The position numbers and the translations under genes were made by a program. Of a stretch of 64,000 bases of DNA, positions 5,472 through 53,023 are shown piece after piece. The stretch is from an uncultured Syntrophobacterales bacterium (GTDB taxonomy: Bacteria; Desulfobacterota; Binatia; UBA9968; JAJDTQ01). The notes under the pieces are model-generated. The model saw only the letters and a program-made list of their open reading frames with translations. It was not told the origin of the DNA and did no database searches. Location: the NCBI GenBank assembly GCA_964519455.1, contig CAZFIU010000003.1, forward strand, positions 18,943 to 82,942, written 5' to 3'. The number at the start of each line of letters is the position of its first letter. Position 1 is the stretch's first letter.

Positions 5472-7223
5472 TTACTTCTCCCCCTCCACCATTTGCCCGG
5501 CGATCTTGAAGAAAGGGTGCATCGCCCTGCCGGAGCGCGGCCAGTAGTGCAGGTAGAACTCGTCGTGGGGGATGGGCTCGTCCCAGATCTTGAGGGCGCC
5601 GTTCTCGATGATCGACTTGCTCAGCACCAGCCACTTCTCGTTGTCGGTCTCGGGATGGTCGCTGTTGATCACCGAGCCGCGGCTCTCCTGCCGGTGCAGC
5701 AGGTAGTCCAGCACCGCGGTCAGGGCCTCGATGGAGTTGCGCAGTCCCACGACCTTCACCAGGTCGTGGGGGTCCCTGGCCATGACGTTGTCGTAGGTGT
5801 CGAGGATCTCCATGAGCCCCCGCCTGACCCGCGTGATCTTCTCGTCGCTCAGGATCACCCCCAGCTCGTGCAGCAGGTCCGCGGCCCGGCCGTGGACCTC
5901 GTCGAACGCGGTGCCCTCGGGCTTGAGGTACCGGGTGACGCCGTCGGAAAGCGCCTTCACCTGCGGCGCCGCGACCCCCTTCATTTCCGCGTTCCTGGCG
6001 TAGTCGGCGGCGTGGAGCCCGGCCCACCAGCCCAGCACCATGCACCAGGAGAGGTTCAGGTTGGGCGAGATGTTCATGCCGTCGCTGCTGGCGCCGGCGG
6101 CGAACAGGCCCGGCAGCGAAGTCGCGCACTGGTCGTCCACCACCGCGCCGCCGCCGTGGCTCGAGCCGTAGGTGGCGGCCAGCACCGGCAGGTACGGGAT
6201 GCGCTCCTTGCTGATCTCGTAGCCCGCGGCCTCGAAGGTGTTCATGATGATGGGGATGACCTCGTACAGGAGGCGGACGTTCTCGGGCGGGAGCTTGGTG
6301 CAGTCCAGGTACACGGGGCCGTTGCCTTCCAGCATCTCCAGCGCCACGGCGTGTCCCAGCGACAGCCGCCGGGTGAACTCGGCCTCGGACTCGGTGAAGC
6401 GCTTCATCACGTCCACGCCCAGGCGGTTGAAGTAGCTGGTGCCCATGGTGGTGAAGTGCTCGATGCCCGGCGCGCACATGAACTCCATGGTCTGGAGGTA
6501 CTTGCTGCCGCACGCCATGTTGCCCATCACCGCGCCCGCCCGGATCTGCATGGCGACGCCGTCGCTGGTGATGTTGAGGGGCATGCCCGCGAACCACTGT
6601 CCCGGCCTCTTGTAGCCGAAATTGAAGCCGCCCGCGCACATCACCACGGACTTGGCCTCGCACACGTGCACCTCGCGCTCGCGCCCGGAGATCCCGAGGG
6701 CGCCCACCACGTGGCCGCCGGTGGGATGGCGGCCGTCCGAGGTCAGGAGGTCCGTCACCGAGACCCGGTCGAGCACGCGCACGCCGGCGCGCAGGGCCAC
6801 GCCGCGCACCACCTTCATCATCGCGGTGCCGCCACCCACCAGACCCGCCGCCAACCCGCCGCTGGCGGCCGCGCCGGAGCCCCCCTTGCCGCGCCAGAAC
6901 TCGCCGTTCTCCTTGACGAACTTGACGCCCCAGCCGTCGAGGATCTTGAGCACGTCGTAGGTGGCGTGAATCGCCTCGATGGCCTTGGTCTGGTTGGTCA
7001 GCACGCCTCGGCCGGAGAGGTGGAACTTGAGGTCGTCGCCGGGCATGTAGGTGATGTACGCCCCGGAGGCCAGCGCCGCGCAGCCGCTGCGGCCGAACAC
7101 GGACTTGTCCACCAGGAGCACGTCGGCGCCCTCCTCGCGCGCGCGGATCGCCGCCATGGCGCCGGCCGCGCCGCCGCCGATGACCAGCACGTCGGCCTTG
7201 TGATGGATGGTCTTGTAGCTCAT
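5472..7223 (-). CDS. FAD-binding oxidoreductase, fumarate reductase/succinate dehydrogenase flavoprotein-like
   Basis: Dinucleotide-binding motif DVLVIGGGAAGAMAA near the N-terminus (start taken at MSYKTIHH, ATG 7223) and overall FRD/SDH flavoprotein-like architecture. Confidence 0.8.
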   Translation of the reverse strand: MSYKTIHHKADVLVIGGGAAGAMAAIRAREEGADVLLVDKSVFGRSGCAALASGAYITYMPGDDLKFHLSGRGVLTNQTKAIEAIHATYDVLKILDGWGVKFVKENGEFWRGKGGSGAAASGGLAAGLVGGGTAMMKVVRGVALRAGVRVLDRVSVTDLLTSDGRHPTGGHVVGALGISGREREVHVCEAKSVVMCAGGFNFGYKRPGQWFAGMPLNITSDGVAMQIRAGAVMGNMACGSKYLQTMEFMCAPGIEHFTTMGTSYFNRLGVDVMKRFTESEAEFTRRLSLGHAVALEMLEGNGPVYLDCTKLPPENVRLLYEVIPIIMNTFEAAGYEISKERIPYLPVLAATYGSSHGGGAVVDDQCATSLPGLFAAGASSDGMNISPNLNLSWCMVLGWWAGLHAADYARNAEMKGVAAPQVKALSDGVTRYLKPEGTAFDEVHGRAADLLHELGVILSDEKITRVRRGLMEILDTYDNVMARDPHDLVKVVGLRNSIEALTAVLDYLLHRQESRGSVINSDHPETDNEKWLVLSKSIIENGALKIWDEPIPHDEFYLHYWPRSGRAMHPFFKIAGQMVEGEK

Positions 7224-7285
7224 GTGAGGTCCGTGGAGCCCGTGCTCCGATGCGCCCGCCGAACAGATCCGAAACGTTCCGGTCA

Positions 7286-7305
7286 ACTTGGTACGTAGAC
7301 CAAGT
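7286..7305. promoter_or_regulatory. inverted repeat ACTTGGT-N6-ACCAAGT in the divergent promoter region, a candidate operator
   Basis: Perfect 7-bp arms read directly. It lies between the FAD-oxidoreductase operon (-) and prpE (+). Confidence 0.3.
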
Positions 7306-7441
7306 CAGGGGGCACTGTCAAAGCCACGTCCGAGCCGTCTCCCGGACCGGCGTCCGAGCCCGCGGCCGGTGTTCGAGTTTGCAGGCCGGGGTCCGCCCGG
7401 TTTATGGAGAAGCCATCGGAAACCGCTTTTGGGAGACGCGA

Positions 7442-9343
7442 ATGAGCCACAACGACTACAAGGACGCTTACGCACGGGCGTTGAAGGACCCGGAAGGTTT
7501 CTGGGCCGAGGCCGCCGGCGACATCCACTGGGACCGGCGCTGGGACCGCGTGCTCGACGACTCCCGGCCGCCCTTCTACCGGTGGTTCACCGGCGGCGCC
7601 CTCAACACCTGCTACAACGCGCTGGACGTGCACGTGGAGCAGGGCAACGGCGCGCGCCCGGCGCTGATTTACGACAGCCCGGTGACGGACGGCGTCAAGA
7701 CCTTTACCTACGCAGAGCTGCGGGACGTGGTGGCGACCTTCGCCGGGGCGCTGCGCAACCACGGCGTGGGCGCCGGCGACCGGGTGATCATCTACATGCC
7801 CATGGTGCCCGAGGCGGTGGTGGCCATGCTGGCGTGCGCGCGCCTCGGCGCGGTGCACTCGGTGGTCTTCGGCGGCTTCGCCGCCAACGAGCTCGCCACC
7901 CGCATCGACGATGCCCGACCCAAGGTCATCGTGAGCGCGAGCTGCGGCATCGAGGTCAACCGCGTCGTCGAGTACAAGCCGCTGCTGGACGAGGCCATCC
8001 GCCTGGCGGGGCACAAGCCCGGCGCCTGCCTGGTGCTGCGGCGGCCCCAGGCCGAGGCCGCCATGACCGCCGACCGCGACGTGGACTGGAACGAGGCGGT
8101 GGCCGCCGCCGAACCGGCGCCATGCGTCTCCGTGGCCGCCACCGACCCCCTGTACATCCTCTACACCTCCGGCACCACCGGACAGCCCAAGGGCATCGTG
8201 CGCGACAACGGCGGCCACGCGGTGGCGCTCAAGTGGAGCATGAAGAACGTCTACGGCGTGGACGCCGGCGAGGTGTACTGGGCCGCTTCCGACGTGGGCT
8301 GGGTGGTGGGCCATTCCTACATCGTCTACGCACCGTTGCTGAAGGGCTGCACCACCGTCCTCTACGAGGGCAAGCCCGTGGGCACGCCCGATCCCGGCGC
8401 TTTCTGGCGGGTCATCAGCCAGCACGACGTCCGTGTGTTGTTCACCGCGCCCACCGCCTTCCGCGCCATCAAGAAAGAGGATCCCGACGGCGTCCATGTC
8501 GGGAAACACGACCTCAGCCGTTTCCGGACCCTGTTCCTCGCCGGCGAGCGCTGCGACCCCGATACGCTGGTGTGGGCGCGGGAGATGCTGGACGTGCCGG
8601 TCATCGACCACTGGTGGCAGACCGAGACCGGCTGGCCCATCGCGGCCAACTGCATGGGCATCGAGCCGCTCCCGGTGAAGCCCGGCTCGCCCACCCGGGC
8701 CGTGCCGGGGTACGACGTCCGCGTCCTCGACGACGAGGGACGCGAACTGCCGGCCGGCGCGATGGGCAGCATCACGCTGAAGCTGCCGCTGCCTCCGGGA
8801 TGCCTGCCCACCCTGTGGAACAACGAGCAAGGTTACCGCAGTGCCTACCTCGAGCAGCATCCCGGTTACTACGTCACCTCGGACGGCGGTTACTGCGACG
8901 AGGACGGCTACCTGTGGATCATGGGGCGCATCGACGACGTCATCAACGTCGCCGGACACCGGCTTTCCACCGGCGCCATGGAAGAGGTGGTGGCCGCCCA
9001 CCCGGCGGTGGCCGAATGCGCCGTGCTGGGCGTGGCCGACGCGCTCAAGGGCCAACTGCCCCTGGGACTGATCGTGGTCAAGGCGGGGGTGGAGACCACG
9101 GAAGAAGCCCTGGTGCCCGAACTCGTGAGCCTCGTGCGCGAAAAGATCGGGCCGGTGGCCGACTTCAAGCAGGCGCTGATGGTGAAGCGCCTGCCCAAGA
9201 CGCGCTCCGGCAAGATCCTGCGCGGCACGGTGCGGAGCATGGCGGACGGCACCCCCTACAAGGCCCCCGCCACCATCGACGATCCGGCCATACTGGACGA
9301 AATCCGGGAGGACCTGGGCCGGCTGGGGTATCCGAAAGGATGA
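7442..9343 (+). CDS. prpE: propionate--CoA ligase / acetyl-CoA-synthetase-family AMP-forming acyl-CoA synthetase
   Basis: N-terminus MSHNDYKDAYARALKDPEGFWAEAA, AMP-binding motif YTSGTTGQPKG, and C-terminal SGKILR lysine motif. GGAGA Shine-Dalgarno 6 nt upstream. Confidence 0.8.
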   Translation: MSHNDYKDAYARALKDPEGFWAEAAGDIHWDRRWDRVLDDSRPPFYRWFTGGALNTCYNALDVHVEQGNGARPALIYDSPVTDGVKTFTYAELRDVVATFAGALRNHGVGAGDRVIIYMPMVPEAVVAMLACARLGAVHSVVFGGFAANELATRIDDARPKVIVSASCGIEVNRVVEYKPLLDEAIRLAGHKPGACLVLRRPQAEAAMTADRDVDWNEAVAAAEPAPCVSVAATDPLYILYTSGTTGQPKGIVRDNGGHAVALKWSMKNVYGVDAGEVYWAASDVGWVVGHSYIVYAPLLKGCTTVLYEGKPVGTPDPGAFWRVISQHDVRVLFTAPTAFRAIKKEDPDGVHVGKHDLSRFRTLFLAGERCDPDTLVWAREMLDVPVIDHWWQTETGWPIAANCMGIEPLPVKPGSPTRAVPGYDVRVLDDEGRELPAGAMGSITLKLPLPPGCLPTLWNNEQGYRSAYLEQHPGYYVTSDGGYCDEDGYLWIMGRIDDVINVAGHRLSTGAMEEVVAAHPAVAECAVLGVADALKGQLPLGLIVVKAGVETTEEALVPELVSLVREKIGPVADFKQALMVKRLPKTRSGKILRGTVRSMADGTPYKAPATIDDPAILDEIREDLGRLGYPKG

Positions 9344-13288: not shown

Positions 13289-13290
13289 CC

Positions 13291-13397
13291 GTCGGGGCCT
13301 CCCTCGGACCTGACTTCTCCACGACACGCGGCCCGCCCGCGACCTGCCAGTTCAGGTGAGGTCGGGGCCTCCCTCGGACCTGGTTTCTCCACGACAC
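13291..13397. repeat. two direct 37-bp repeats (GTCGGGGCCTCCCTCGGACCTG[AC/GT]TTCTCCACGACAC) with a 70-bp period
   Basis: Copies at 13291-13327 and 13361-13397, 35/37 identical. Confidence 0.6.
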
Positions 13398-13460
13398 TCC
13401 GCCCGGATTCCCGCTTCCCAGGGTGTGGCAAACCCTGCTGGACACGTAGAGCCGCCACGC

Positions 13461-13646
13461 CCCCGAATCGTCATTCCCGCGAAACAGACTGTGTCAAAAC
13501 TCACACGATCCGGAAACAGCGCCGCCCCCCGTGACGTCATTCCCGCGAAAGCGGGAATCCATGGGTAGGGCGGGGCTGAAACAGGCTCGTTCCCCACCTC
13601 ACCCCGCCTGGATTCCCGCTTTCGCGGGAATGACGATTCGGGGGGC
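13461..13646. repeat. composite palindromic element of the TCATTCCCGC-GAAA-GCGGGAATGA family
   Basis: The outer arms CCCCGAATCGTCATTCCCGCGAAA (13461-13484) and TTCGCGGGAATGACGATTCGGGGGG (13621-13646) are reverse complements. An inner ~100-bp bipartite palindrome spans 13536-13634. Confidence 0.7.
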
Positions 13647-13708
13647 CGGGAATGAAGTAATGGGGACCGGGAATGACGTGTTGGGAGCCGGAAATGACGT
13701 ATTCGTAA
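13646..13708. repeat. three tandem ~21-bp copies of the half-unit CCGGGAATGA[A/C]GT...
   Basis: ccgggaatgaagtaatgggga / ccgggaatgacgtgttgggag / ccggaaatgacgtattcgtaa, read directly. Confidence 0.5.
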
Positions 13709-13838
13709 CGTCTCCGCCCGGAGGGTTTGGACACGACCGCTTTCGCGGGAACGACGGGTCGGGGTGTCGGCGGTGCTTCCCTTCCGCGGTCAACCGGAGT
13801 AGATTCCACTGCGAATTCCGAACCAGCGGGAGGGAACC

Positions 13839-14861
13839 ATGCTACCCGACATGCCACGTGACCAGCGGCTCGAGTTGCTGCGCAAGATGCTCATGATCCG
13901 GCGCGCGGAAGAGCACGTCGTCCGCTTCAACGAGGAGCACGAAGGGCTCATTCGGGGCCACTTCCACATCTACATCGGCCAGGAGGCCACCGGCGTGGGC
14001 GTGTGCGCGGCACTGGCGCCCGAGGACTACGTCTTCAGCACCCACCGGAACCACGGCCACGTCATCGCCAAGGGCGGCGACCCCGGCAAGGTGCTCGCCG
14101 AGGTCATCGGACGCGAGACCGGCTACTGCCTGGGACGCGGCGGCACCTTCCATGTGGCGGCGCCCGACCTGAACATCCTGCACACCTCCGCCATCGTGGG
14201 CGGCAGCACGGCGCTGGCCTCGGGGGCGGCGCTGGCGGCGCAGGTGCTGGAGTCCAACGCCGTCACGGTGGTCTTCTTCGGCGACGGCGCCATGGACGAG
14301 GGCGTGGCCTACGAAAGCATGAACATCGCGCGGCTGTGGAACCTGCCGCTGATCTTCGTCATGGAGAACAACTACCGGCGCGCCGGAAGGGTCAATACCG
14401 ACCACGCCGCCGACGACCTGCCCAACATTCCGCGCGCGCTCAACCTCGAGACGGTTACCGTGAACGGCGACGACGTGGGGCAGGTGCATGGCACGCTGAA
14501 GGAACTGGTGCGCCGGGTCCGCGCCGGCGAGGGTCCGTTTTTCGTCGAGGCGCGCACCCACCCGTGGCCGGGCAACGACGGCGCCCATCCCACGCTGGTG
14601 GGCGGACCGACGGACATCCACTGGGCCTGGGACCCGAGCCCGGTGCCCGAAGACGTGCGTTCCTGGTACGCCGAGGGCGATTGCATCCTGGCCTATGCGC
14701 GGGAGCTGGCGGAGAGCGAGGGGTGCGACCGGGAGGCCGTGGTGCGGGTCGACGAGGAGGTGCGGCGCGACGCCGACGCCGCGGCGCAGTTCGCGCTCAC
14801 GAGCCCGTTGCCTCCGCCGGAGGCGGCGGTCCGGTATGCGTACGCGGGAAGGAGTGAATAG
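13839..14861 (+). CDS. thiamine-pyrophosphate-dependent dehydrogenase E1 component, alpha subunit (PdhA/AcoA-like)
   Basis: TPP-binding GDG...N region (VVFFGDGAMDEGVAYESMN) in an E1-alpha-like ~340 aa protein. Confidence 0.85.
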   Translation: MLPDMPRDQRLELLRKMLMIRRAEEHVVRFNEEHEGLIRGHFHIYIGQEATGVGVCAALAPEDYVFSTHRNHGHVIAKGGDPGKVLAEVIGRETGYCLGRGGTFHVAAPDLNILHTSAIVGGSTALASGAALAAQVLESNAVTVVFFGDGAMDEGVAYESMNIARLWNLPLIFVMENNYRRAGRVNTDHAADDLPNIPRALNLETVTVNGDDVGQVHGTLKELVRRVRAGEGPFFVEARTHPWPGNDGAHPTLVGGPTDIHWAWDPSPVPEDVRSWYAEGDCILAYARELAESEGCDREAVVRVDEEVRRDADAAAQFALTSPLPPPEAAVRYAYAGRSE

Positions 14862-14863
14862 GC

Positions 14864-15841
14864 ATGGCGCGCGAGATGACCCTGGGAGAGGCGCTGGTCG
14901 AGGCGTTGGCCGAAGCCATGGAGCAGGATCGCCGGGTGGTGTTGATCGGCGGCGGTCTGGTCAGCTCGGGACCGGGCGCGGAGCGGTTCCGCTCGGTGCG
15001 CGAGCGGCACGGCAACCGCATCAAGTCCCCGCCCATCGCCGAGCTGGGCTATTGCGGCATCGCCGCGGGCGCGGCCATGGCCGGACTGCGTCCCCTGGTG
15101 GACATCGGCACCGCGACTTTTTCCTACGAGGCGATCCCGCAGATCAACAACGAGGCCGCCATCGCCTACTCCAACTCCGGCGGCCAGACCAACGCGCCGG
15201 TCACCTACTTCATGCGCTACGGCATCCGCGGCGGCGGCGGCGTGCAGCACTCCGGCAGCCCGCAGCCCTGGTACTGGAACACCCCGGGCCTGCAGGTGGC
15301 CATGCCCGCCACACCGGCGGACGCCAAGGGGCTGCTGCGGACCGCATTGCTGAAGAGCCAGGACCCCACCATCTTCTTGGCCCATGAGCGCCTGCTGGGC
15401 GAGCGCGGCCCGGTGCCCGACGGCGAGCACGAGACCGAGTTCGGCAAGGCCACGGTGGCGCGGGAAGGCAGCGACGTCACCATCGTGGCTTCCGGGGTGC
15501 AGGTGCCCCGGGCGATGGCGGCCGCGGAGGCTCTGGCCAAGGACGGCATCTCGGCGGAGGTGGTGGACCCGCGGACGCTGGAGCCGCTGGACACCGACAC
15601 TCTGCTGGCATCGGTGCGCAAGACCGGCCGCCTGGTGGTCACCGACGAAAGCCACGACAACTGCGGGGTCGCCGCCAATATCGCCGCGCTGATGGCGGAC
15701 CTGGCTTTCGACAGCCTGAAAGCGCCCATCAAGCGGGTCGCCATCCCGCACGTGCCGATCCCGTTCGCGGTGCCGCTGGAGGACTACGTGACGCCGACCG
15801 CGGGGCGTATCGCGGAGGCAGCGCGGGCCGTGATGGGATAG
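14864..15841 (+). CDS. alpha-ketoacid dehydrogenase E1 component, beta subunit (transketolase-like)
   Basis: 325 aa with a transketolase-like pyrimidine-binding N-terminal half and a C-terminal domain. It starts 3 nt after the alpha subunit. Confidence 0.85.
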   Translation: MAREMTLGEALVEALAEAMEQDRRVVLIGGGLVSSGPGAERFRSVRERHGNRIKSPPIAELGYCGIAAGAAMAGLRPLVDIGTATFSYEAIPQINNEAAIAYSNSGGQTNAPVTYFMRYGIRGGGGVQHSGSPQPWYWNTPGLQVAMPATPADAKGLLRTALLKSQDPTIFLAHERLLGERGPVPDGEHETEFGKATVAREGSDVTIVASGVQVPRAMAAAEALAKDGISAEVVDPRTLEPLDTDTLLASVRKTGRLVVTDESHDNCGVAANIAALMADLAFDSLKAPIKRVAIPHVPIPFAVPLEDYVTPTAGRIAEAARAVMG

Positions 15842-15968
15842 AGCTGACGAATCGATCGGTGTCCTTCGACGTCGCGCCGCTGACGCGGCGCTACGCCTGT
15901 CCTGGCCTGATGACGGGCTCGGGACGACGGTCCCGGGAGCGGTTTCCTGTTCGGGTTCCTCCGCTCTC

Positions 15969-16721
15969 CTATTCGGTTTCCCGGTACTCCCGCGCGAACG
16001 CGCACAGCCGTTCCACGGCCAGCTCGAACAGCTCGCCGCCTTTCTCCTTGCTGGCGAGGGTGGGGTCGCCCATGACGCCCGACGGCGACAGGTCCTCGCG
16101 CGGCGTCTGGACGTAGCCTCCGACCTTGCTGACGAAGGCCGGCATCTGCGGCCCGAGATGCGTCACCAAGCTGCCCTGCGCGCACAGCTCCTCGCGCAGG
16201 TGCAGGTTCATGGAGGTCTCCACCGCCCCGGCGTGGCCCACGCGGGCGCCGGGCATCTTCTCGTCCGGGAACAACCGGCCCATGTCCTTGTCCACGAGGC
16301 CGAACCAGTTCAGCACCACGACGCGGATACCCTCCTCGTCCTGCAGCGCCGCCACCGTGGAGCGCGACAGCGCCACCTGCCCGCCGTGGCCGTTCAGCAG
16401 TGCGATGCGCGTGAACCCGTGCCGGTGCACCGAGCGCACGATCTCGCGGATCAGCGCCATCCAGGTGGCCGCCGTCAGGCTGATACTGCCGGGGAAGTTC
16501 TTGTTGCTCGGCGTGAAGCCGAAGGACACCGTCGGCCCCACCAGGATCTCCGTGTCCCGCCGCGCGGCTGTCCTGGCGATCTCCTGCGAGATGAACGCAT
16601 CGGTGTCCAGCGGCAAGTGATGTCCGTGCTGCTCGATGACCCCGACGGGGACGATCACCACGCACCCTTTCTCCGCGCACTCCTTGATCCGCGGCCAGCT
16701 CAACTCTTGCCATATGGGCAT
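15969..16721 (-). CDS. creatininase-family amidohydrolase
   Basis: Family pattern VIVPVGVIEQHGHHLPLDTD...LNGHGG. AGGAGG Shine-Dalgarno upstream of ATG 16721. Confidence 0.8.
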   Translation of the reverse strand: MPIWQELSWPRIKECAEKGCVVIVPVGVIEQHGHHLPLDTDAFISQEIARTAARRDTEILVGPTVSFGFTPSNKNFPGSISLTAATWMALIREIVRSVHRHGFTRIALLNGHGGQVALSRSTVAALQDEEGIRVVVLNWFGLVDKDMGRLFPDEKMPGARVGHAGAVETSMNLHLREELCAQGSLVTHLGPQMPAFVSKVGGYVQTPREDLSPSGVMGDPTLASKEKGGELFELAVERLCAFAREYRETE

Positions 16722-16776
16722 CGTGTCCTCCTGACGGTTGACGGCGCTTCCCGTCGATCGGGGCATTCAGACCGCG

Positions 16777-17091
16777 CTACGGCTTCCTTGCCGTACTCCG
16801 GCGGCGCGAGCCTCCCCGCATCGGCGCATTCGCTTCCGCGGACCGGCCGGTAACCCAGTCCATCATCAAACGCTTGATCTGAGTCTGATAGGGCACGTCG
16901 TGCAGGCTCGCCTTGGCCTTGAACGCCTCCAGCAGGTTCTCCGGCACCTTGAGGCTGATCAGCTTGCTTCCCCTGCGCGCCGCGGGCGAATAGAGCCTGC
17001 GAAACTCATCGAGAAACCGCAGGATGTCCTCGGGCTTCATGCCCCTGCATTGCTCCAGGTACTCCTTCGAGAAGTACTGCACGGGTCTCAT
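16777..17091 (-). CDS. BrnA/DUF4415-like ribbon-helix-helix putative antitoxin
   Basis: The segment KLISLKVPENLLEAFKAKASLHDVPYQTQIKRLMMDWV matches the BrnA/COG3514 core. Its ATG overlaps the upstream nucleotidyltransferase stop (ATGA). Confidence 0.55.
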   Translation of the reverse strand: MRPVQYFSKEYLEQCRGMKPEDILRFLDEFRRLYSPAARRGSKLISLKVPENLLEAFKAKASLHDVPYQTQIKRLMMDWVTGRSAEANAPMRGGSRRRSTARKP

Positions 17092-17552
17092 GAGGCGATG
17101 CTCCTCAGTGCCTTGACGTCCTCGAGATCCTGTGGCCGGCCGCTCTTTTCCTTCATCCGAATCAGATCGTGAACCGCCACCACGGGCAAACGGAGTCCCC
17201 CCGCGGACACCATGTCCACCTGCATCGCCGACAGATCTTCGGTGATGATGATGTCCACCATCTCGGTGGGGTCCGCCGCATTGACGAAGCTCCAGGCGAT
17301 CAGATTGCGGTTGCGGATGTACTCTTCCCGGAAATCGAACACTTCCTGCGCCTTCAGCGGCAGGCGGGCCCGCAGTCCCAGGCGCTTCAGCGCCGATTCC
17401 GCGGCTGTAAAATTCTCACGGGACAACGCGAGCACCAAGTCCAGGTCAAGAGTGCCTCGCACCACGCCGTGCAGTGCGACCGCATGCCCGCCGGCGATGG
17501 CGAAACGGACCCGGGCTTGCCGGAGAGCGGTGACTACGCGCTCGACGAACAT
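17088..17552 (-). CDS. minimal nucleotidyltransferase (MNT-fold) protein
   Basis: The hG[GS]-x9-13-Dh[DE]h motif is present as IAGGHAVALHGVVRGTLDLDLVL. 154 aa. Confidence 0.6.
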   Translation of the reverse strand: MFVERVVTALRQARVRFAIAGGHAVALHGVVRGTLDLDLVLALSRENFTAAESALKRLGLRARLPLKAQEVFDFREEYIRNRNLIAWSFVNAADPTEMVDIIITEDLSAMQVDMVSAGGLRLPVVAVHDLIRMKEKSGRPQDLEDVKALRSIAS

Positions 17553-17557
17553 CTTTC

Positions 17558-17569
17558 TGGTATATACCA
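17558..17569. promoter_or_regulatory. perfect palindrome TGGTATATACCA (with a TATA -10-like core) upstream of the nucleotidyltransferase gene
   Basis: Read directly, 6 nt upstream of ATG 17552. Confidence 0.4.
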
Positions 17570-17606
17570 GATATATCCTATCCGGAAGGGGGCTGCTGCC
17601 TGAAGG

Positions 17607-17667
17607 GCGGACACCCGCGATCGCGGGTCCGCTTCGCCGAACCGAGGGGCATCCACCCTCGGTTCGG
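17607..17667. terminator. two strong GC hairpins downstream of the alcohol dehydrogenase gene
   Basis: GCGGACACCCGCGATCGCGGGTCCGC (17607-17632) and CCGAACCGAGGG-N8-CCTCGGTTCGG (17637-17667). Confidence 0.4.
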
Positions 17668-17695
17668 GCCTGTCGACGGCCGTGCTCCGCGGTCC

Positions 17696-18712
17696 TCAAT
17701 CCAGCACGAACACGCACTTTCCGGTGGTGGCGCCGTCGAAGACGCGGAACGCCTCCACGGCGTCGTCGAGGGCGAAGCGGTGCGTGACCAGGTCGTCCAC
17801 CGGGACGTTCTCCTCCACCATGAAGCGGCAGATCTCGATCAGCTCGGACTTGTTGAAGGTCCACGAGCCGACGATGGTGGCCACCTTGAAGATGACGTCG
17901 TCGCGGAAGTTGATGGTGGACGGGGGGCCCATGCCCACGTAGCAGCAGCGCCCGAAGGTACGCATGGCCTTGAGGATCTGGCTGCGGCATTCCGGGTTGC
18001 CGGAGGTCTCCAGCGCCGCCGTCGCCCCCAGGCCGCCGGTCAACTCCTTGATGGCTTCCACGGGGTCGGTGTCGGCGGCGTTGATGACATGGTCCGCGCC
18101 GTAACCGCGCGCCAGTTCAAGCCGCTCCGGCACCACGTCGACGGCGATGACCTTGGCCCCCATGTACTTCGCACACATCGTCCCGCTCAGACCCACCGGC
18201 CCTTGGCCGAAGATGGACACCACGTCGCCGCCGGCGATATGGATCTTCTTGAGGCCGTTCCAGGCCGTGCCGGTGCCGCAGGAGATGGCCGCCCCGGCCT
18301 CGAAGGACAGGTCCTCGGGGAGGTGGATCAGCAGGCGCGACGGCACCAGGATGTAGTCCGCGTTGGCGCCGTGGGCGTCCACGCCGCCGAAGGTCACGTG
18401 GCCGTGGGGGCAGGCCTGCTCGAACCCCATGGAGCAGATCTCGCAGATGCCGCAGCCCTCGTAGTGGTGCACCACCACCCGGTCGCCCACCTTCAGGCCG
18501 GCCGGGGCGCCGGCGCCCAGCTCGTGGATGACGCCGCAAGGCTCGTGGCCGGTGATGGCGTTGATGGCCACGTCCCCGCGGTAACGGTGCAGGTCGGTGC
18601 CGCACATGCCCGAGGCGCGGATCTTCACCACCGCCTGGCCCGGTCCCGCGTGGGGGTCCGGGAACTCCCGTATCTCGCACTCTCGGTTGCCGTTGAACAT
18701 CACGCCGCGCAT
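17696..18712 (-). CDS. zinc-dependent alcohol dehydrogenase (MDR family)
   Basis: GHE..G catalytic zinc motif (GHEPCGVIHELG), structural-zinc Cys cluster (CGICEICSMGFEQAC) and Rossmann fold GQGPVG. Confidence 0.85.
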   Translation of the reverse strand: MRGVMFNGNRECEIREFPDPHAGPGQAVVKIRASGMCGTDLHRYRGDVAINAITGHEPCGVIHELGAGAPAGLKVGDRVVVHHYEGCGICEICSMGFEQACPHGHVTFGGVDAHGANADYILVPSRLLIHLPEDLSFEAGAAISCGTGTAWNGLKKIHIAGGDVVSIFGQGPVGLSGTMCAKYMGAKVIAVDVVPERLELARGYGADHVINAADTDPVEAIKELTGGLGATAALETSGNPECRSQILKAMRTFGRCCYVGMGPPSTINFRDDVIFKVATIVGSWTFNKSELIEICRFMVEENVPVDDLVTHRFALDDAVEAFRVFDGATTGKCVFVLD

Positions 18713-18957
18713 GGGATTTCTCCTGTCTCCTCAGAGGGATTTGCCTACAGCCCGTATCACGGGGCCGGGCGGCAGGGCAACCGTGGTGGCTGAATGGCGG
18801 AGGGGCCGGGATGACGCGGAGGCGCCGCCGGGGCCGTGGGTCAAGGCGGTGGTCCGGGCCGGGCGGGCGGCATTCTCCGCGTGTCTGTCTACGGCGGACG
18901 CTTTGTGGTATTGCGTTGGGTGCCTGACGGCACAGTTTGAGAGACAGGAGGTCGCCC

Positions 18958-19290
18958 ATGGAATTTGCGAGTCTTGTGGACAAGGCGGAGACAGGGCAGC
19001 GGTTTACACGGCTCTTCGGCACGGAGAAGTCCTGCACCTGGATGCTTCATTTCAAGCCCGGCGACCACACGGACATGCACTTTCACGCGGAGCCGGAGAC
19101 CTTTCTGGTGGTGGAAGGAAAGGCCAGCGTCAAGGACATCAACGGGGGCGAACGCATCATCGAGCAGGGTGAGGTGGTCTTCTTCCCGGCCAAGGACTAC
19201 TACCAGATCACCAACGTGGGCACGGGCCGTCTGCTTCTCTACGGCAACCGACCCGAACCCTTCGGCGGGGTCCACGTCACCGCGAAATAG
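18958..19290 (+). CDS. cupin domain protein
   Basis: 110 aa single-cupin barrel (HFHAEPETFLVVEG...EVVFFPA). AGGAGG Shine-Dalgarno upstream. Confidence 0.75.
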   Translation: MEFASLVDKAETGQRFTRLFGTEKSCTWMLHFKPGDHTDMHFHAEPETFLVVEGKASVKDINGGERIIEQGEVVFFPAKDYYQITNVGTGRLLLYGNRPEPFGGVHVTAK

Positions 19291-19402
19291 CTGCGGTTTG
19301 CCGTCGCCACGCACGCACGGACGGCGCCACGTCGGGGTCAAACCTTGGAGATGGTAACTCCTTGACCTCGTTTTGAATTTTCGACATTTGCGGAGAGCGG
19401 TC

Positions 19403-20155
19403 ATGGCGAACGAGAGTGCATCTTCAGAAGCGCAATACCTCGTCGGCTCGGTCTGGCCCACCAACCGGACCGGCGTGCTCGGCGACACGGAGCTGGACCC
19501 GAAGCTGCCGGCCAGCATCCGCTTCGTGCACCTGAGCATGGAGTTCACCCAGGGCACCCAGGACGAGTTCCGGGCGGCCATGCCGGGCTACGAGGCCAAG
19601 GCGGCGGAACTGGCGGCGCTCGAACCGGACCTGATCCGGGTCATCGGGGCGCCGCCGTTCATGCTCCTGGGCTACGAGGGGGAGAGCGCCACCATCCGTT
19701 CCTGGGAAGAACGCTACGGCGTTCCGATGCTCACCTCGGGGATGAACCACGTGTGCGCGTTCCGCACCCTGGGAGTGCGACGCATCGTGGGCGCGAGCTA
19801 CTTCCCCGAGCACCTGAACGACCTGTTCCGCCAATACCTCACCGACGCGGGTTTCGAGATGCTGGGCATGGACGGTATCGACGTGCCTTTCGCCGACGTC
19901 CCCAAGGTGCCGTCCGAGGAGATCCAACGGCAGCTCACGGAGATGTTCGCCCGCCATCCGGGAGGAGAATGCCTGTACATGCTGGGGTCGGCGTGGAAGA
20001 CCCTGGACATCATCGAACCCCTGGAGGCCGACCTGGGCGTGCCCGTGGTGTACGCCCCCACCGCGCGCTGCTGGGAGACGCAGATGCGCCTGGGCGTGCG
20101 CCAGCCGATTCCGGGCTATGGACGACTGCTGGCGGAGATGCCGGAACCGGTCTGA
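19403..20155 (+). CDS. Asp/Glu/hydantoin racemase superfamily protein (maleate isomerase/arylmalonate decarboxylase-like)
   Basis: Two-domain racemase-like pattern of ~250 aa. Confidence 0.7.
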   Translation: MANESASSEAQYLVGSVWPTNRTGVLGDTELDPKLPASIRFVHLSMEFTQGTQDEFRAAMPGYEAKAAELAALEPDLIRVIGAPPFMLLGYEGESATIRSWEERYGVPMLTSGMNHVCAFRTLGVRRIVGASYFPEHLNDLFRQYLTDAGFEMLGMDGIDVPFADVPKVPSEEIQRQLTEMFARHPGGECLYMLGSAWKTLDIIEPLEADLGVPVVYAPTARCWETQMRLGVRQPIPGYGRLLAEMPEPV

Positions 20156-20172
20156 GAACTCGGGTTTCCCCG

Positions 20173-20243
20173 CCTCACCCCACCTGGATTCCCGCCCCCG
20201 ATCGGGGTCGAGGGTAAACTTTCGCGGGAATGACGTTTCGGGC
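20173..20243. repeat. degenerate copy of the GGGAATGAC palindromic element
   Basis: ...CCCCACCTGGATTCCCGC...TTTCGCGGGAATGACG, read directly. Confidence 0.55.
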
Positions 20244-20342
20244 ATTCCTCGCGGCCCATCGGCTTATCTGGTACACACGGAGGAATCTCGTCACGACATC
20301 CTGCCGAGGCAGGCCCACGCACACCTACAGGGAGGAATCGCA

Positions 20343-25033: not shown

Positions 25034-26581
25034 TTACACCCCCTCCACCTCGAACCCCGCCAGGTTGCGTGCCTCCCCGCTGAATTCCACCGCCACCAAG
25101 TGGATCGGCTCGCCGAGGCTCCGGTACTTGTCCGCGTAGCCCCTCTCCTTCAACTGCGTCATGGCAGAACCCGGCGGCGCCGTCTCGACCACCTTGAACT
25201 CGAACAGGTAGACGTTGCCGTTGAACCGCACGGCCATGTCCAGTCGCCCGTGGTTGCTGCTGTCCTCCACCGTGATATCCAGCCCCAGGCCTGCGAAGTA
25301 GGAGTAGAACACACTGGCGTAGTAGCCCTCGTAGTCGGCGATGTCGTTGTTCGTGTACCACTGGTGCGGGATGCTGGCGAAGAACGCGTGGAACAGCGTC
25401 CGAAGCCCGTCGAAGTCGTTGGCAAGGAGCAGGTTGTAGAGCTTGGCGCTGTTCGACACCCGCCTCGACGCGTCCCCCGTCATGCGGTTCAGCAGGCTTC
25501 TGTTCAGGCTTTGGCGGACCTCCCGGTTGGGATAGCCCAGACGGTAGAGCATCTCCCCGCCGCGAGGCTCGGCGCGCACGATGGTCAGGTAGCCGGTCTG
25601 GAACAGCAGCGCCTCCGTCGGTATGTCGTCCACGTCGAACCGCGACAGCAACTCGCCGCTGCCGACCATGCCGTCCAGCGACAAGGCGCTGACCCGGCGC
25701 TCGAACAGCGTGTCCACGAGAAACGCCGGTGAGCCCGTCTCGAACCAATGGCCGCCGAACTCCCGGTTGCGGAACAGCAGCAGGATGTCGACCGGATTGT
25801 AGACATTCTCCTCGCCCAACCAGCCGTAGCCGTTGTACCAGTCGCGGATCTCGCCTCGGTCGAGGCCCGGCAACTCCGCGGCAAACACCGTGTCCAGGTC
25901 CGCGTCCGTATAGCCGCACACCGCGGAATAGCCGGGGTCCAGCGTGATGTCGGTAAGGTTGTTGAGCCCGGAGAACAAGCTCACCTTGGAGAACTTGCTC
26001 ACTCCGGTGATGAAGCTGAACCGTAGATGCGCGTCGCTGTCCTTTATCACCGCGTACAGACCGCGCAGAAAATCACGGTTGGCGCGCGCGACTTCCGGCA
26101 CATCCAGCGCATCCAGGATGGGCTTGTCGTACTCGTCAATCAGCACCGCCACGGGCTGCCCCGCCTGGTGGTGCAGCGCCTCCAGGAGATAGCGCAAGCG
26201 TTCGACCGGTGTAGAGTATGGCGAGTCCAGCCCCGCCTTGCGTTCCACCGTGTCAAGTTGGGCCATCAGGTTCGTGTGCAGGTAGCCGGGCTCCTTGAAG
26301 TTGCCGCCGCCGAAACTCAGGCGTACGACGGGATGCCGCACCGACCAATCCCACCGATCGTGGATGTAGAGCCCTTTGAACAGCGGCTCATTGCCCTCGA
26401 ACAACTCCTTGCACGTGTCCAGGAACAGGCTCTTGCCGAAGCGTCGGGGACGGGACAGGAAGTAGTGCGTTCCCTCGTCCAGTAGCCGGCGGACATACGC
26501 GGTCTTGTCCACGTAGTAACAGCCGTCTTCGCGAATCTTGCGGAAGGTCTGAATGCCGATGGGCAGCCTGCGCCTGGTCAT
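25034..26581 (-). CDS. predicted AAA-ATPase (PF09820-like) with C-terminal PD-(D/E)xK nuclease domain (DUF1703-like)
   Basis: N-terminus LPIGIQTFRKIREDGCYYVDKTAYV...FLSRPRRFGKSL. The C-terminus carries a ...D...FEFK PD-(D/E)xK-like core (GRLDMAVRFNGNVYLFEFKV). Confidence 0.8.
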   Translation of the reverse strand: MTRRRLPIGIQTFRKIREDGCYYVDKTAYVRRLLDEGTHYFLSRPRRFGKSLFLDTCKELFEGNEPLFKGLYIHDRWDWSVRHPVVRLSFGGGNFKEPGYLHTNLMAQLDTVERKAGLDSPYSTPVERLRYLLEALHHQAGQPVAVLIDEYDKPILDALDVPEVARANRDFLRGLYAVIKDSDAHLRFSFITGVSKFSKVSLFSGLNNLTDITLDPGYSAVCGYTDADLDTVFAAELPGLDRGEIRDWYNGYGWLGEENVYNPVDILLLFRNREFGGHWFETGSPAFLVDTLFERRVSALSLDGMVGSGELLSRFDVDDIPTEALLFQTGYLTIVRAEPRGGEMLYRLGYPNREVRQSLNRSLLNRMTGDASRRVSNSAKLYNLLLANDFDGLRTLFHAFFASIPHQWYTNNDIADYEGYYASVFYSYFAGLGLDITVEDSSNHGRLDMAVRFNGNVYLFEFKVVETAPPGSAMTQLKERGYADKYRSLGEPIHLVAVEFSGEARNLAGFEVEGV

Positions 26582-28899: not shown

Positions 28900-29003
28900 A
28901 CAAACTGCCGAATTACCGTCATCAGTCGGAACCGGACAACGACGACCCGAATACGTCAGTCCCGCGCAACAAGTGTGTCAAAACACCGCTCGGACACGAA
29001 ATG

Positions 29004-29061
29004 ACACCAACGCATAGAACGTCATTCCCGCTTTCGCGGGAATGACGTTCTATGCGTTGGT
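29004..29061. repeat. perfect 58-bp palindrome built on the TCATTCCCGC-TTTC-GCGGGAATGA unit
   Basis: CACCAACGCATAGAACGTCATTCCCGC tttc GCGGGAATGACGTTCTATGCGTTGGTG gives a 27-bp stem and a 4-nt loop, read directly. Confidence 0.75.
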
Positions 29062-29140
29062 GCCCATTCCCTGTTCGTGCGGAGTTTGACGCAGCCCGAG
29101 AAGCCGGTGTCCATCTTCCCGCTTCCGCGGGAACGTCTTT
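29062..29140. repeat. degenerate repeat copies: a CATTCCC...TTCGTG.GGAG.TTGAC.CAGCCCG.GAAGC variant and a TTCCCGC-TTCC-GCGGGAA hairpin
   Basis: Resembles the 40911-40965 variant. Confidence 0.45.
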
Positions 29141-29166
29141 GATCGCGGGCATGGACGGACGAGTTC

Positions 29167-35161: not shown

Positions 35162-36247
35162 ATGACGCTGATCCTCACCAACGAGGAGATCGAGAGCTGC
35201 TTCACCCTGGAGGAATGCTTCAGGGTGATGGAGCCCGCGTTCATCGACCTGGGCAACGGCGCCGCCGCCAACCTGCCCCGCCAGGACCTGCTGGTGCCCG
35301 GTCCCCTGGAGGGCAGCTACCACGGCCTCAAGTCCGCCGGCGGCTCCATGCCGCGCTTCGGCGTGACCGCCGCCCGGCTGACCTCGGACATCGTCACCTG
35401 GCCTGAAGTGGACGGCGAGAGACGGCGTGTCAAGGTGCCGCTGGCCATGGGCAACAAGTACGTCGGCCTGGTGTTTCTCTTCAGCACCGCCACCGGCGAG
35501 TTGCTGGCCATCTTCCCCGACGGCCTGGTGCAGGCCATCCGCGTGGGCGTCACCAACGCCCTTTCCGCCAAGTACATGGCGCGACCGGAATCGTCGGTGC
35601 TGGGGCTCTACGGCTCCGGCTGGCAGGCACGCTCCGGCCTCCTGGCCATGTGCTCGGCCATGCCCATCCGGGAGGTTCAGGTGTACAGCCCGACCGAGGA
35701 GCACCGACGGGCCTTCGCCCGAGAAATGGATCGCCGGGTGGAGGCCGAGGTACGGGCGGTGGACGTTCCCGAGCACGCGGCCCGCGGCGCCGACATCGCG
35801 CTTCTGACCACCAACGCGCTGGTGCCCTTCTTTCCGGCCGACTGGATTCGCCAAGGCATGCACATCGCCACCGTCCGCTCCAGCGAGATGACCGTGGACG
35901 CGCTGCTGCGGTGCGACCGGCTGGTGGTGTCGAGCCGGGAAGCTGCCCGGCTGGTGACGCTGCCCGGCGAGGAGGAGCGAATCCCGGAGGCCGGCGAGGG
36001 CGACTACAGGCGAGAGGAACTGAGCGGCACCGAGGCCGACTGGAGCCGGAAGCCGGAGTTGGGAGAGGTCATGGCGGGAAGAGCCGCGGGCAGGGAAAGC
36101 GCGGCGGAGGCGACCTGCATGCTCAACTATGTCGGACTCGGGCTCCAGTTCGCCGCCGCTGGAGCCCGAATCTACGAGTTGGCCCGGGAACGCGGCCTCG
36201 GCAGGGAGCTTCCCACCGAATGGTTCTCGCAGGACGTTCACTCGTAG
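35162..36247 (+). CDS. ornithine cyclodeaminase/mu-crystallin family protein
   Basis: Rossmann motif GLYGSGWQA and OCD-family length and pattern. Confidence 0.8.
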   Translation: MTLILTNEEIESCFTLEECFRVMEPAFIDLGNGAAANLPRQDLLVPGPLEGSYHGLKSAGGSMPRFGVTAARLTSDIVTWPEVDGERRRVKVPLAMGNKYVGLVFLFSTATGELLAIFPDGLVQAIRVGVTNALSAKYMARPESSVLGLYGSGWQARSGLLAMCSAMPIREVQVYSPTEEHRRAFAREMDRRVEAEVRAVDVPEHAARGADIALLTTNALVPFFPADWIRQGMHIATVRSSEMTVDALLRCDRLVVSSREAARLVTLPGEEERIPEAGEGDYRREELSGTEADWSRKPELGEVMAGRAAGRESAAEATCMLNYVGLGLQFAAAGARIYELARERGLGRELPTEWFSQDVHS

Positions 36248-36323
36248 GTGGCGCCGTGGGAGGGTTCGCGTTGAGATTTTGGACTATGTGTCACCAAGCC
36301 GACACTTCATCCTCCTTTTCCTT

Positions 36324-37214
36324 GTGCTAAAGATCATTACATGTTACCCGTTCGCCTCAGTGATTGCCAACCCAGAATTCAAACGGCAACCAAAGTACTT
36401 TTCGGCTTACGTGCGAACGCTCAGTCAGTACCTCGGTTACACTGTTCGGAGCAAAGGGATCGTAAAAGTGCCGACGCTTTCCGAAATAGGGGCAGGACTC
36501 GGCAACTTGGGGCTCGATCCGGGAAGAATTGTGGACGCGTTTGGTAAACCAACCCAGCTTGGTGCAGACTTGAATAGGTACTTTGAATATCGCTCGAGCA
36601 TTCTCAACAATTCAGTACAACATCAATTGATGACAGTCGAAGAGGCACGGCACACCTTCGAGGAGTTGCGCGAGGCCATGGTCTACGGTTGCCCCCTTCC
36701 GCTAAACAAGCAAAAAGGTGACAAGGCAGGCCCAGCGTACTTTACGGGAATCATCAATATGCTGATCGCTAACGGCTTGAGGGGGACTCAGTGCGACTAT
36801 TCACCCATGAAACTCACAACAATCACGAGAAACGCTACAGTAATCCGAACACTATCTAGACGGGTCGATGGCGCTTTCCCTGCCGTCGTGAATCCGTTGG
36901 CGTTGTGGGAAATCAAAGAGTACTACTACACTACCACGTTCGGAAGCAGAATCGCCGACGGAGTATACGAAACCCTTTTGGATGGCATGGAACTGCAAGA
37001 ACTCCGGGAACATGAGAATATTGACGTCAAACATTATCTGATGGTCGATGCGTACAACACGTGGTGGGAAATGGGTAGACCGTACCTCTGCCGTATGGTG
37101 GACATGCTCCACATGGGCTATGTCGATGAAGTCCTCTTTGGCAGGGATGTGATTGAGCGAATTCCCGAACTTACCAAGGAATGGCTGTCTCTGCTGGAGA
37201 ACAAGCCAGTCTAA
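36324..37214 (+). CDS. putative type II restriction endonuclease, DpnII/MboI-like (start uncertain: GTG 36324, TTG 36279 or GTG 36288)
   Basis: Low-GC (~50%) gene convergent with and overlapping a Dam-family methyltransferase. The segment PLALWEIKEYYYTTTFGSRIADGVYETLL resembles the DpnII ExK...SGSK catalytic core. No ATG is present, so an alternative start codon is required. Confidence 0.45.
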   Translation: MLKIITCYPFASVIANPEFKRQPKYFSAYVRTLSQYLGYTVRSKGIVKVPTLSEIGAGLGNLGLDPGRIVDAFGKPTQLGADLNRYFEYRSSILNNSVQHQLMTVEEARHTFEELREAMVYGCPLPLNKQKGDKAGPAYFTGIINMLIANGLRGTQCDYSPMKLTTITRNATVIRTLSRRVDGAFPAVVNPLALWEIKEYYYTTTFGSRIADGVYETLLDGMELQELREHENIDVKHYLMVDAYNTWWEMGRPYLCRMVDMLHMGYVDEVLFGRDVIERIPELTKEWLSLLENKPV

Positions 37215-40673: not shown

Positions 40674-40690
40674 CTGCTCCCGGCCCCTCA

Positions 40691-40750
40691 TCGTCATTCC
40701 CTGCCTCTCTCCGTCATTCCTACCCCTCTCCGTCATTCCCGCGAAAGCGG
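40691..40750. repeat. three tandem ~20-bp copies of the half-unit (t/c)CGTCATTCC leading into a full palindromic element
   Basis: tcgtcattccctgcctctct / ccgtcattcctacccctctc / cgtcattcccgcgaaagcgg. Confidence 0.5.
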
Positions 40751-40830
40751 GAATCCAGGCGGGGTGGGGTCGGGGAGTCTCTGCCGTTTCCCCTCCACCA
40801 CTCCTGGATTCCCGCTTTCGCGGGAATGAC
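40732..40830. repeat. ~100-bp bipartite palindromic element (GTCATTCCCGCGAAAGCGGGAATCCAGG...CCTGGATTCCCGCTTTCGCGGGAATGAC)
   Basis: Near-identical to the elements at 13536-13634 and 53024-53123. Confidence 0.75.
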
Positions 40831-40871
40831 TCTTCCGGGGGTTGTTGCCTCTCCAAGATGGTGTTCTGACA

Positions 40872-40965
40872 CAGCCTGTTTCGCGGGAATGACGATTCGG
40901 GGCGACCACGTCATTCCCCATTCGTGAGGAGCTTGACAGCCCGGGAAGCGGGAATGACGCATTCG
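40872..40965. repeat. further copies: a right-arm half unit (TTTCGCGGGAATGACGATTCGGGG) and a variant element (GTCATTCCC-cattcgtgaggagcttgacagcccgggaagc-GGGAATGAC)
   Basis: Read directly. The variant resembles 29062-29100. Confidence 0.55.
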
Positions 40966-41109
40966 TAGCGCCTCTGCCGGCCGGGGAAATTGCAAAGGGC
41001 GGGACTCCTGTGATAACCCCGGCGAGTGTGCGGCGCGGGACCGCCACACGGGCGCGAAGCGCAGTCGTGCGTGGCTCGGGTTTGGCAAAATCTGCCAGGG
41101 AGGTGAACC

Positions 41110-52943: not shown

Positions 52944-53023
52944 CGCCTCGAACCGTCATTGATATGAAAACAAAAACTCGTCCAATGATTTCTGGTAGTT
53001 ACGGAATCCTGCTACACCCCGAT

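Follow-up and report, generated by a model that had tools for sequence, protein, structure and literature searches.

CGTC-tagged hairpin repeats matching the Neisseria Transformation Sequence family, with tandem half-site arrays, in intergenic regions of a high-GC deltaproteobacterial lineage

Repetitive extragenic palindromic (REP) sequences tagged with CGTC were defined by Di Nocera, De Gregorio & Rocco (BMC Genomics 2013; PMC3733652). They occur mostly as inverted dimers and, unlike the GTAG-tagged REPs, are associated neither with a REP-associated tyrosine transposase (RAYT) nor with any other transposase. Among them, the CGTC-1 family, which in Neisseria is the same as dRS3, combines an 8-bp stem with a 4-nt loop and a CCA tail (PMC3733652). 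The dRS3 repeat has since been extended to the 28-nt Neisseria Transformation Sequence (NTS) and to the degenerate Ssn-related motif (SRM) (Chenal et al., Nat Commun 2025; PMC11893778). These repeats are associated across phyla with ssnA, a gene encoding a 94-aa single-domain GIY-YIG protein, cd10448 (PMC11893778). Here we describe hairpin repeats in a 64-kb stretch of contig CAZFIU010000003.1 (hereafter, the window), which comes from a deltaproteobacterial lineage known from a metagenome-assembled genome (MAG). Judged by their sequence, these repeats are NTS-type SRMs, equal to the CGTC-1 REP family that includes the Neisseria dRS3. The element is of an already described kind, and the window adds a new host lineage to the NTS/SRM repeats.

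The core TCATTCCCGCGAAAGCGGGAATGA has seven matches in the window at up to three mismatches, compared to none in 100 dinucleotide-preserving shuffles, and the octamer ATTCCCGC occurs 23 times where 3.7 occurrences are expected. The unit is directional, 28 nt long, and has the structure CGTC-ATTCCCGC-GAAA-GCGGGAAT-CCAG. The two octamers form the canonical 8-bp stem, with CGTC unpaired at the 5' side and CCAG at the 3' side, and a single unit folds with a 4-nt loop at -9 kcal/mol (z -4.2). The original prediction, made from the letters of the window alone, had proposed a dispersed family of REP-like palindromic hairpins, and these counts, together with the occupancy of five intergenic regions, bear this out. 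It had also given the core a 10-bp stem, which turned out to be confined to one symmetric copy (29020-29047). Every unit is tagged with CGTC, and all canonical units have (C)GTC upstream of the stem and C right after it. Compared to the published NTS consensus CGTCATTCCCGCGMAVGCGGGAATCYRG, two units are identical at all 28 positions, three differ at one position, another at two, and the symmetric copy at three. A search with the degenerate SRM motif of PMC11893778, HGTCWYN(0-2)YYVSBRHN(0-5)WNVSBRGN(0-2)RNCYNB, picked the five units that deviate from the NTS consensus at no more than one position, and one extra match at 24495 that is probably due to chance. The units of the window have the features of CGTC-1: the CGTC tag, the 8-bp stem opening with A/T pairs, the 4-nt loop, the CCA tail, and the arrangement as inverted homodimers. 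A scan of the window with Rfam found no family.

All copies are located in five intergenic regions (loci A to E, Table 1), each lying between co-directional genes according to the gene map, which is based on GC content at third codon positions (GC3) and on Pfam domains. At all five loci, the elements start 3-30 nt past the stop codon of the upstream gene. The original prediction had placed all copies at operon boundaries; what the gene map shows is an intergenic position between genes on one strand. Loci A, D, and E each carry an inverted doublet of ∼120 nt, whose single-stranded DNA (ssDNA) folds have energies of -50 to -57 kcal/mol with z about -11. The doublets are convergent, with the CGTC tags facing outward and the CCAGG tails and G/C-rich arms facing inward. 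They had been predicted as three near-identical composite elements of ∼100 nt, and are real. So is the predicted 58-bp palindrome, in that it forms a perfect hairpin, although it was placed one base off, at 29004-29061 instead of 29005-29062. Loci A (550 nt) and D (436 nt) are intergenic arrays in which ATTCCC-N8-GGGAAT units alternate with modules, for example CAGRCTGTGTCARAAC and TTCGTGAGGAGCTTGAC, that resemble the repeat sequences (RS) of Neisseria and are not common to the other genomes sampled. Locus A additionally has a 45-nt direct repeat (91% identity, 70-nt spacing) right after the stop codon, upstream of the NTS mosaic.

The likeness to the NTS/SRM repeats of Chenal et al. (PMC11893778) comprises the 28-nt sequence, the hairpin of 8 bp with its directional CGTC tag and the C that follows the stem, the intergenic clustering, the wide phylogenetic spread, and the NTS-ssn-NTS cassettes, which recur in independent loci. 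The differences are in the host, a 67% GC deltaproteobacterial MAG lineage; in the lack of ssnA within 64 kb; in the lineage-specific G-rich inner arms of the doublets and the local mosaic modules; and in the close relatives, which at the same sites carry either an SRM variant with a ACCCCGGG stem and a CTTGA loop or repeats of other families. With the CGTC-1 REPs (PMC3733652), the window repeats share the tag, stem, loop, and CCA tail, inverted homodimers with spacers of 20-100 nt, location downstream of ORFs, and the lack of a transposase. However, in that survey Alphaproteobacteria and four other phyla were the main hosts of CGTC repeats, and neither this lineage nor most phyla matched here were included. 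The neisserial intergenic mosaic elements (NIME) containing dRS3 are similar in the ATTCCC-N8-GGGAAT core, in hairpins alternating with short RS-like modules, as at loci A and D, and in positions that vary among related genomes. As the host is outside Neisseria, the likeness is confined to structure; the RS-like modules are not shared, and the loop is GAAA, while in dRS3 it is mostly GCAG or CTGC. Finally, GTAG REPs of Pseudomonas and E. coli and their hairpin-forming doublets (REPINs) also form inverted doublets folding into one long hairpin, are intergenic, have lineage-specific abundance, and come with a cognate nuclease gene that is present in one copy and has the repeats on its flanks. 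They differ in having the tag GTAG and not CGTC, an HUH/Y1 transposase and not a GIY-YIG nuclease as the partner, and species-specific sequences as opposed to a sequence found across phyla.

In contrast to an ordinary REP, the repeat is not species-specific. The exact 24-mer is present in 98 IMG/VR contigs, and the matches listed include more than 120 species-representative genomes. The hosts among these listed matches are Alpha-, Beta-, Gamma-, and Deltaproteobacteria, Dehalococcoidia and other Chloroflexota, several lineages of the candidate phyla radiation (CPR), Planctomycetota, Acidobacteriota, Nitrospirota, Omnitrophota, Armatimonadota, Bacteroidota, and a Rickettsia endosymbiont. In 259 occurrences of the exact core, conservation stops at the borders of the 28-mer, with position -1 being G in 96% and position +24 being A in 93% of cases, while the flanks are not conserved. 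Among 158 distinct variants, the stem pairs have undergone 68 compensatory double changes as opposed to three broken doubles, and G-T/G-U wobble intermediates are observed only 13 times. The unpaired G2, T3, and C4, as well as C25 following the stem, are 94-99% conserved in the same variants, and mutation at these positions abolished SsnA cleavage or binding (PMC11893778). The excess of compensatory over broken changes and the conservation of the unpaired contact bases show that the hairpin is under selection. Of 245 units across genomes, ∼75 are followed by an inverted partner 56-137 nt downstream, and 12 have one upstream; hence the convergent doublet is the dominating arrangement across phyla. 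A different arrangement is seen in an Ignavibacterium album MAG (L203, 5780-5925), where complete NTS units follow head-to-tail every 36 nt, always separated by a T-rich spacer of 12 nt; this is superficially similar to CRISPR, but the spacing is too short.

Within the source lineage, one Logan contig spans exactly positions 13617-20212 of the window, so that both of its ends are inside repeats, those of loci A and B. Breaks of this kind inside NTS, seen in short-read contigs from the source sample, are what a multi-copy repeat does to such an assembly. A metagenome scan for the lineage-specific tail GCGGGAATCCAGGCGGGGTGGGG yielded three further contigs (L233-L235, GC 0.66), in which these doublets and mosaic modules are found next to other genes; among them is a 92% identical copy of the split element from locus B.

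We also compared the window to four syntenic 21-kb loci of relatives (L225, L229, L231, and L232; 84 kb in all). L225 was the only one aligned to the window, and its genes have 81-92% nucleotide identity. The ATTCCCGC hairpin, present in the source genome, does not occur even once in these 84 kb. The spacer upstream of E1_dh contains palindromic repeats in the window and in all four relatives. In the window (13289-13838) these are NTS. In L225 (739-1340), the spacer is occupied by the SRM variant CGTC-ACCCCGG(G/C)-CTTGA-...-CCAG, which has 11 copies in 21 kb; in L229 (3252-3725), by arrays of GTAG-tagged REPs, TGTAGGGGCGGGTTTCAAACCCGCCC; and in L231 (2329-2956) and L232 (2568-3346), by arrays of CCCTCTCCCTCTGGGAGAGGG-type palindromes. 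The variant of the L225 type, CGTCACCCCGG, shows no enrichment in the window. At locus B, the sites of L229 (119 nt) and of L231 and L232 (38 nt) are empty, and locus C measures 5 nt in L229. Because the relatives lack the NTS hairpin, carry other palindromic families in the same spacer, and have empty sites at loci B and C, the NTS family occupies recurrent intergenic hot spots in a lineage-specific manner. Such a distribution is in line with elements that move or expand and whose sequence follows that of a partner specific to the lineage. One hot spot filled by NTS, the SRM variant, GTAG REPs, or a GGGAGAGGG-type palindrome, depending on the relative, provides a clean natural example of rapid turnover of repeat families.

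L225 also has an insertion that is absent from the orthologous site of the window. Between genes for ADH and a cupin (7067-8158), there is an IS110-family transposase (DEDD_Tnp_IS110 and Transposase_20 domains) and, directly behind it, four units of the SRM variant repeated in tandem every 39 nt.

A candidate partner for the repeats is known from experiments. SsnA binds the hairpin only as ssDNA, not as double-stranded DNA or RNA, and cuts one strand a few nucleotides upstream; the ssDNA-specific binding and upstream cleavage were demonstrated for the Neisseria and Wolbachia enzymes, with three homologues tested besides Neisseria (PMC11893778). In N. meningitidis, SsnA lowers transformation with NTS-bearing DNA (PMC11893778). 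We consider it probable that the window units are likewise ssDNA hairpin sites, recognized by a cognate Ssn nuclease encoded elsewhere in the genome. The presence of such a gene in the source genome is inferred from the share of SRM-rich genomes (more than 200 SRMs) that encode ssnA, which is 81% (PMC11893778). If the density of the window held throughout, a genome of 4-5 Mb, as in the closed relatives, would carry several hundred copies. When DNA becomes single-stranded, in replication, in repair, or as incoming DNA, each unit would fold into a hairpin. A single-domain GIY-YIG nuclease of ∼95 aa (Ssn, cd10448) would bind it sequence-specifically and nick that strand only, ∼4 nt upstream of CGTC, so that a doublet would offer a cleavage site on both strands. 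If the consequences are carried over from Neisseria, incoming ssDNA would be shortened and recombination lowered at the flanked loci; this is how cleavage may affect the cell.

To look for the partner gene near the repeats, we used 218 motif-selected loci, 120 of them species loci. Small single-domain GIY-YIG ORFs, assigned by PF01541 only, were found in six of the 218, with SRMs within ∼150 nt in five and on both sides in four. The five belong to an Omnitrophota, an Anaerolineales, a Gammaproteobacteria, a Peribacteria, and a viral-bin contig (loci L021, L175, L142, L174, and L202). The NTS-ssn-NTS architecture is present in other genomes, and such a cassette resembles a selfish or domesticated element that could seed the repeats. 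The protein family comprises 5,474 clusters at E <= 1e-5, nearly all of ∼97 aa and often on very short contigs. NCBIfam has no model for the small GIY-YIG protein, and in the PDB only UPF0213 GIY-YIG structures match, weakly. Clustering of ORFs over all 218 loci was dominated by related prophage loci and spurious ORFs; over the 120 species loci, only ubiquitous families (GGDEF/EAL, ABC ATPases) recurred, with no transposase and no integrase family among them.

Several observations weigh against the assignment to an Ssn nuclease. The window itself has no GIY-YIG or Ssn gene according to both regular-expression and jackhmmer searches, and about one in five SRM-rich genomes lacks a detectable ssnA (PMC11893778). 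The GIY-YIG ORFs found here are candidate relatives of N. meningitidis SsnA and cd10448, assigned by PF01541. A role in restricting transformation would presuppose a naturally competent host. Moreover, all five loci would be transcribed as 3' untranslated regions (UTRs), and a role at the RNA level could coexist with, or even dominate over, the one at the DNA level.

The last possibility, that the units act primarily as 3'-UTR hairpins, either as terminators or as barriers to 3'-exonucleases stabilizing the upstream mRNA, with the Ssn link being incidental, is in our opinion unlikely. It agrees with the very stable stems, with all five loci lying between genes of the same direction and starting 3-30 nt past the upstream stop codon, and with the general tendency of REPs to be located mostly downstream of ORFs (PMC3733652). 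However, the sequence is conserved across phyla including its unpaired bases, as expected for a site recognized by a protein, wobble intermediates are rare relative to full compensations, and SsnA does not bind the RNA form (PMC11893778). Intrinsic (Rho-independent) terminators would need a T/U tract behind the GC-rich hairpin on the strand that is transcribed. No such tract follows the hairpins, the counts of terminator-like structures equal the shuffled expectation, and the sole NTS-derived terminator-like match is on the non-transcribed strand; hence the terminator role suggested in the original prediction has no support in the sequence.

The same prediction had pointed to a RAYT or IS200-like partner, and inverted intergenic multi-copy doublets folding into long hairpins do look like REPINs, that is, non-autonomous elements moved by a RAYT (IS200/IS605-like) transposase. 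Families of the RAYT type even circulate in the clade, given GTAG-type REPs at the orthologous site of L229. Yet the units are tagged with CGTC and not with the RAYT-cleaved GTAG, Di Nocera et al. found no RAYT flanked by CGTC repeats (PMC3733652), and the associated gene is ssnA (PMC11893778). There is no Y1 transposase in the window: a Pfam scan of 40 window ORFs, including those of the low-GC islands, revealed no RAYT, IS110, or IS200 transposase and no Ssn. Nor does any transposase family recur in the 120 species loci. As both defining features, the GTAG tag and the flanked RAYT gene, are missing, we rejected this candidate, and consider mobilization by a RAYT very unlikely. Only slightly better is the case for units being mainly attachment or target sites of site-specific recombinases, such as IS110/Piv-family transposases of insertion sequences and filamentous phages, which we hold to be rather improbable. 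Here, one could cite the integration of Nf/MDA phages into dRS3 reported in the Neisseria literature, the IS110-family transposase gene adjoining the four-unit SRM array in L225 (7067-7956 and 8013-8158, respectively), and the presence of the 24-mer in the IMG/VR contigs. But the window has neither IS110 nor phage genes, no integrase family recurs in the motif-selected loci, and such targeting explains exploitation of the repeats rather than their origin or cross-phylum conservation; the IS110 gene beside the SRM array in L225 would also be a case of exploitation and not a cause. Finally, several units cluster within loci A and D, as local duplication or chance similarity could produce, and the original prediction was to be given up in favor of local duplication had the copies been confined to the window. 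This explanation can be practically dismissed: no matches are expected by chance, the five loci are separate and spread across 40 kb, and the same element is found in other contigs of the lineage and in hundreds of unrelated genomes.

If the units are indeed Ssn sites, one further feature of the arrays may be relevant. Tandem half-site arrays, noted in the original prediction, are real at loci A (13636-13708) and D (40691-40731), and similar ones exist in other genomes. They are directional and lie right upstream of complete units in the same orientation, with one to five tandem copies of a 7-10 nt flank plus GTCATTCC(CGC), i.e. (C)GTC and the 5' arm; the 3' arm is missing, and the period is 18-22. 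In 239 non-redundant NTS units, orphan 5' halves were found upstream in 21 cases and downstream in one, whereas orphan 3' halves were found in two cases on either side. Besides the window, the hosts belong to Chloroflexota, CPR, Omnitrophota, and Beta- and Gammaproteobacteria, with examples from Dehalococcoidia, Peribacteria, Omnitrophota, Burkholderiales, Povalibacter, and IMG/VR bin contigs from isolate genomes. Some arrays are perfect 20-21-nt duplications ending at the stem-loop junction, and the SRM variant in L225 has five 21-nt units of flank plus CGTCACCCCGG upstream of a complete hairpin.

SsnA cuts on the upstream side of the motif, and split stems with loop extensions are still cleaved (PMC11893778). 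The text of that paper does not mention tandem half-site arrays, which may be a new detail. Our literature search for follow-up work on Ssn-mediated mobility found nothing. As a speculation to which we give little credence at present, the arrays could be traces of nicks made by Ssn and then repaired with slippage or from a template, by which Ssn would remodel and propagate its own repeats; the orphan 5' arms could then pair with the single 3' arm as alternative cleavage sites. Were this true, the arrays would be direct sequence evidence of Ssn activity remodelling and propagating its repeats. A link between the arrays and Ssn cleavage would provide the first hint of how the repeats grow, a question left open by their discoverers.

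Table 1. Repeat loci and individual elements in the window, with reference elements from other contigs.
Feature	Position	Strand	Flanking genes, evidence or remark
Locus A	13289-13838		unknown ORF, then E1_dh (Pfam)
Two 45-nt direct repeats (13291-13335, 13361-13405), then decayed NTS right half GGATTCCCGCTTCCCAGGG	13291-13420	.	direct-repeat analysis D15, D5, D1
Variant unit: NTS 5' half and loop fused to local module CAGACTGTGTCAAAAC	13466-13500	+	inverted repeats I8, I10
Doublet A, convergent	13524-13646	.	inverted repeat I2; ssDNA fold -56.7 kcal/mol, z -11.1
Left unit of doublet A, CGTC-ATTCCCGC-GAAA-GCGGGAAT-CCAT	13535-13562	+	1 mismatch to NTS consensus; SRM regular-expression match; -9 kcal/mol
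Right unit of doublet A, NTS	13608-13635	-	28/28 to published NTS consensus
Three orphan 5' half-sites (flank + GTCATTCCC), period 21-22, upstream of minus-strand NTS	13636-13708	-	
Diverged inverted partner of variant unit; outer arms of nested locus A mosaic	13725-13773	-	I10, 73% complementary to 13452-13500
Locus B	20156-20342		Amdase, then ABM / CoA-transferase (Pfam)
Split NTS subfamily: CGTCATTCCCGCGAAA + 22-nt insert + GCGGGAATCCAGG, G-rich tail	20166-20240	-	92% identical copy in another context, L233/L235
Locus C	28900-29166		BNR protein, then MoCoBD, both minus strand (Pfam)
Diverged variant unit CGTCAGTCCCGCGCAACAAGTGTGTCAAAAC	28955-28988	+	
Perfect 58-nt hairpin, 27-nt arms and TTTC loop, around symmetric NTS core CGTC...GACG	29005-29062	.	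3 mismatches to NTS
Local RS-like module (CATTCCCTGTTCGTGCGGAGTTTGAC...), then degenerate NTS hairpin TTCCCGCTTCCGCGGGAA	29064-29136	.	
Locus D	40674-41109		ABM, then TctC (Pfam)
Two orphan 5' half-sites, period 19-20, directly upstream of NTS at 40731	40691-40731	+	
NTS unit, left of doublet D	40731-40758	+	28/28 to consensus
NTS unit, right of doublet D (40722-40842)	40804-40831	-	1 mismatch; I11; doublet -50 kcal/mol, z -12
Variant unit: NTS 5' half and loop + CAGGCTGTGTCAGAAC	40863-40902	-	I8, 95% complementary to 13461-13500
Arms GTCATTCCC ... GGGAATGAC with ∼30-nt local RS-like module between	40910-40960	.	
Locus E	52944-53138		PrpD, then carboxylase, both minus strand (Pfam)
NTS unit, left of doublet E	53025-53052	+	1 mismatch
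NTS unit, loop GGAA, right of doublet E (53014-53139)	53095-53122	-	2 mismatches; I6; doublet -57 kcal/mol, z -11.2
SRM-variant unit of the L225 genome, CGTCACCCCGGG			
Examples of half-site arrays outside the window	L210 1380-1465; L179 60-140; L019; L173; L150; L225 9399-9500		

Recognition of these repeats is of practical use. When translated, they yield the recurrent pseudo-peptides VIPAKAGIQ, SFPRKRES, IPAFAGMT, and LDSRFRGND, the first three of which had been correctly translated in the original prediction, and knowing their source prevents annotation of false genes. As the repeats break short-read assemblies, they also explain contig ends. In addition, a high-GC deltaproteobacterial MAG lineage joins the hosts of the NTS repeats and, probably, of the Ssn/NTS system as a whole.

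Outside the repeat loci, the window contains several other regions of note. On the plus strand, a 1,114-aa ORF (57527-60871) fuses squalene epoxidase/FAD domains with squalene-hopene/oxidosqualene cyclase domains, and the next ORF (60908-62929, also plus strand) is a fusion of GPP34 with cytochrome P450; together, the pair resembles a sterol-type biosynthesis cluster. A plus-strand gene at 49266-50849, in a stretch with GC of 0.58-0.60, encodes a protein with the Shedu SduA C-terminal domain (anti-phage defence). The low-GC island (0.53) at 36129-38101 carries a DUF7690/DUF7687 protein beside a D12-class N6-adenine DNA methyltransferase, and is possibly a restriction-modification or defence module. 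On the minus strand, there are a protein with AAA-ATPase_like and PDDEXK_9 nuclease domains (25034-26581, stretch GC 0.61) and overlapping PIN_10-domain and DUF433/HTH_66 ORFs (47137-48310), which resemble a toxin-antitoxin pair.

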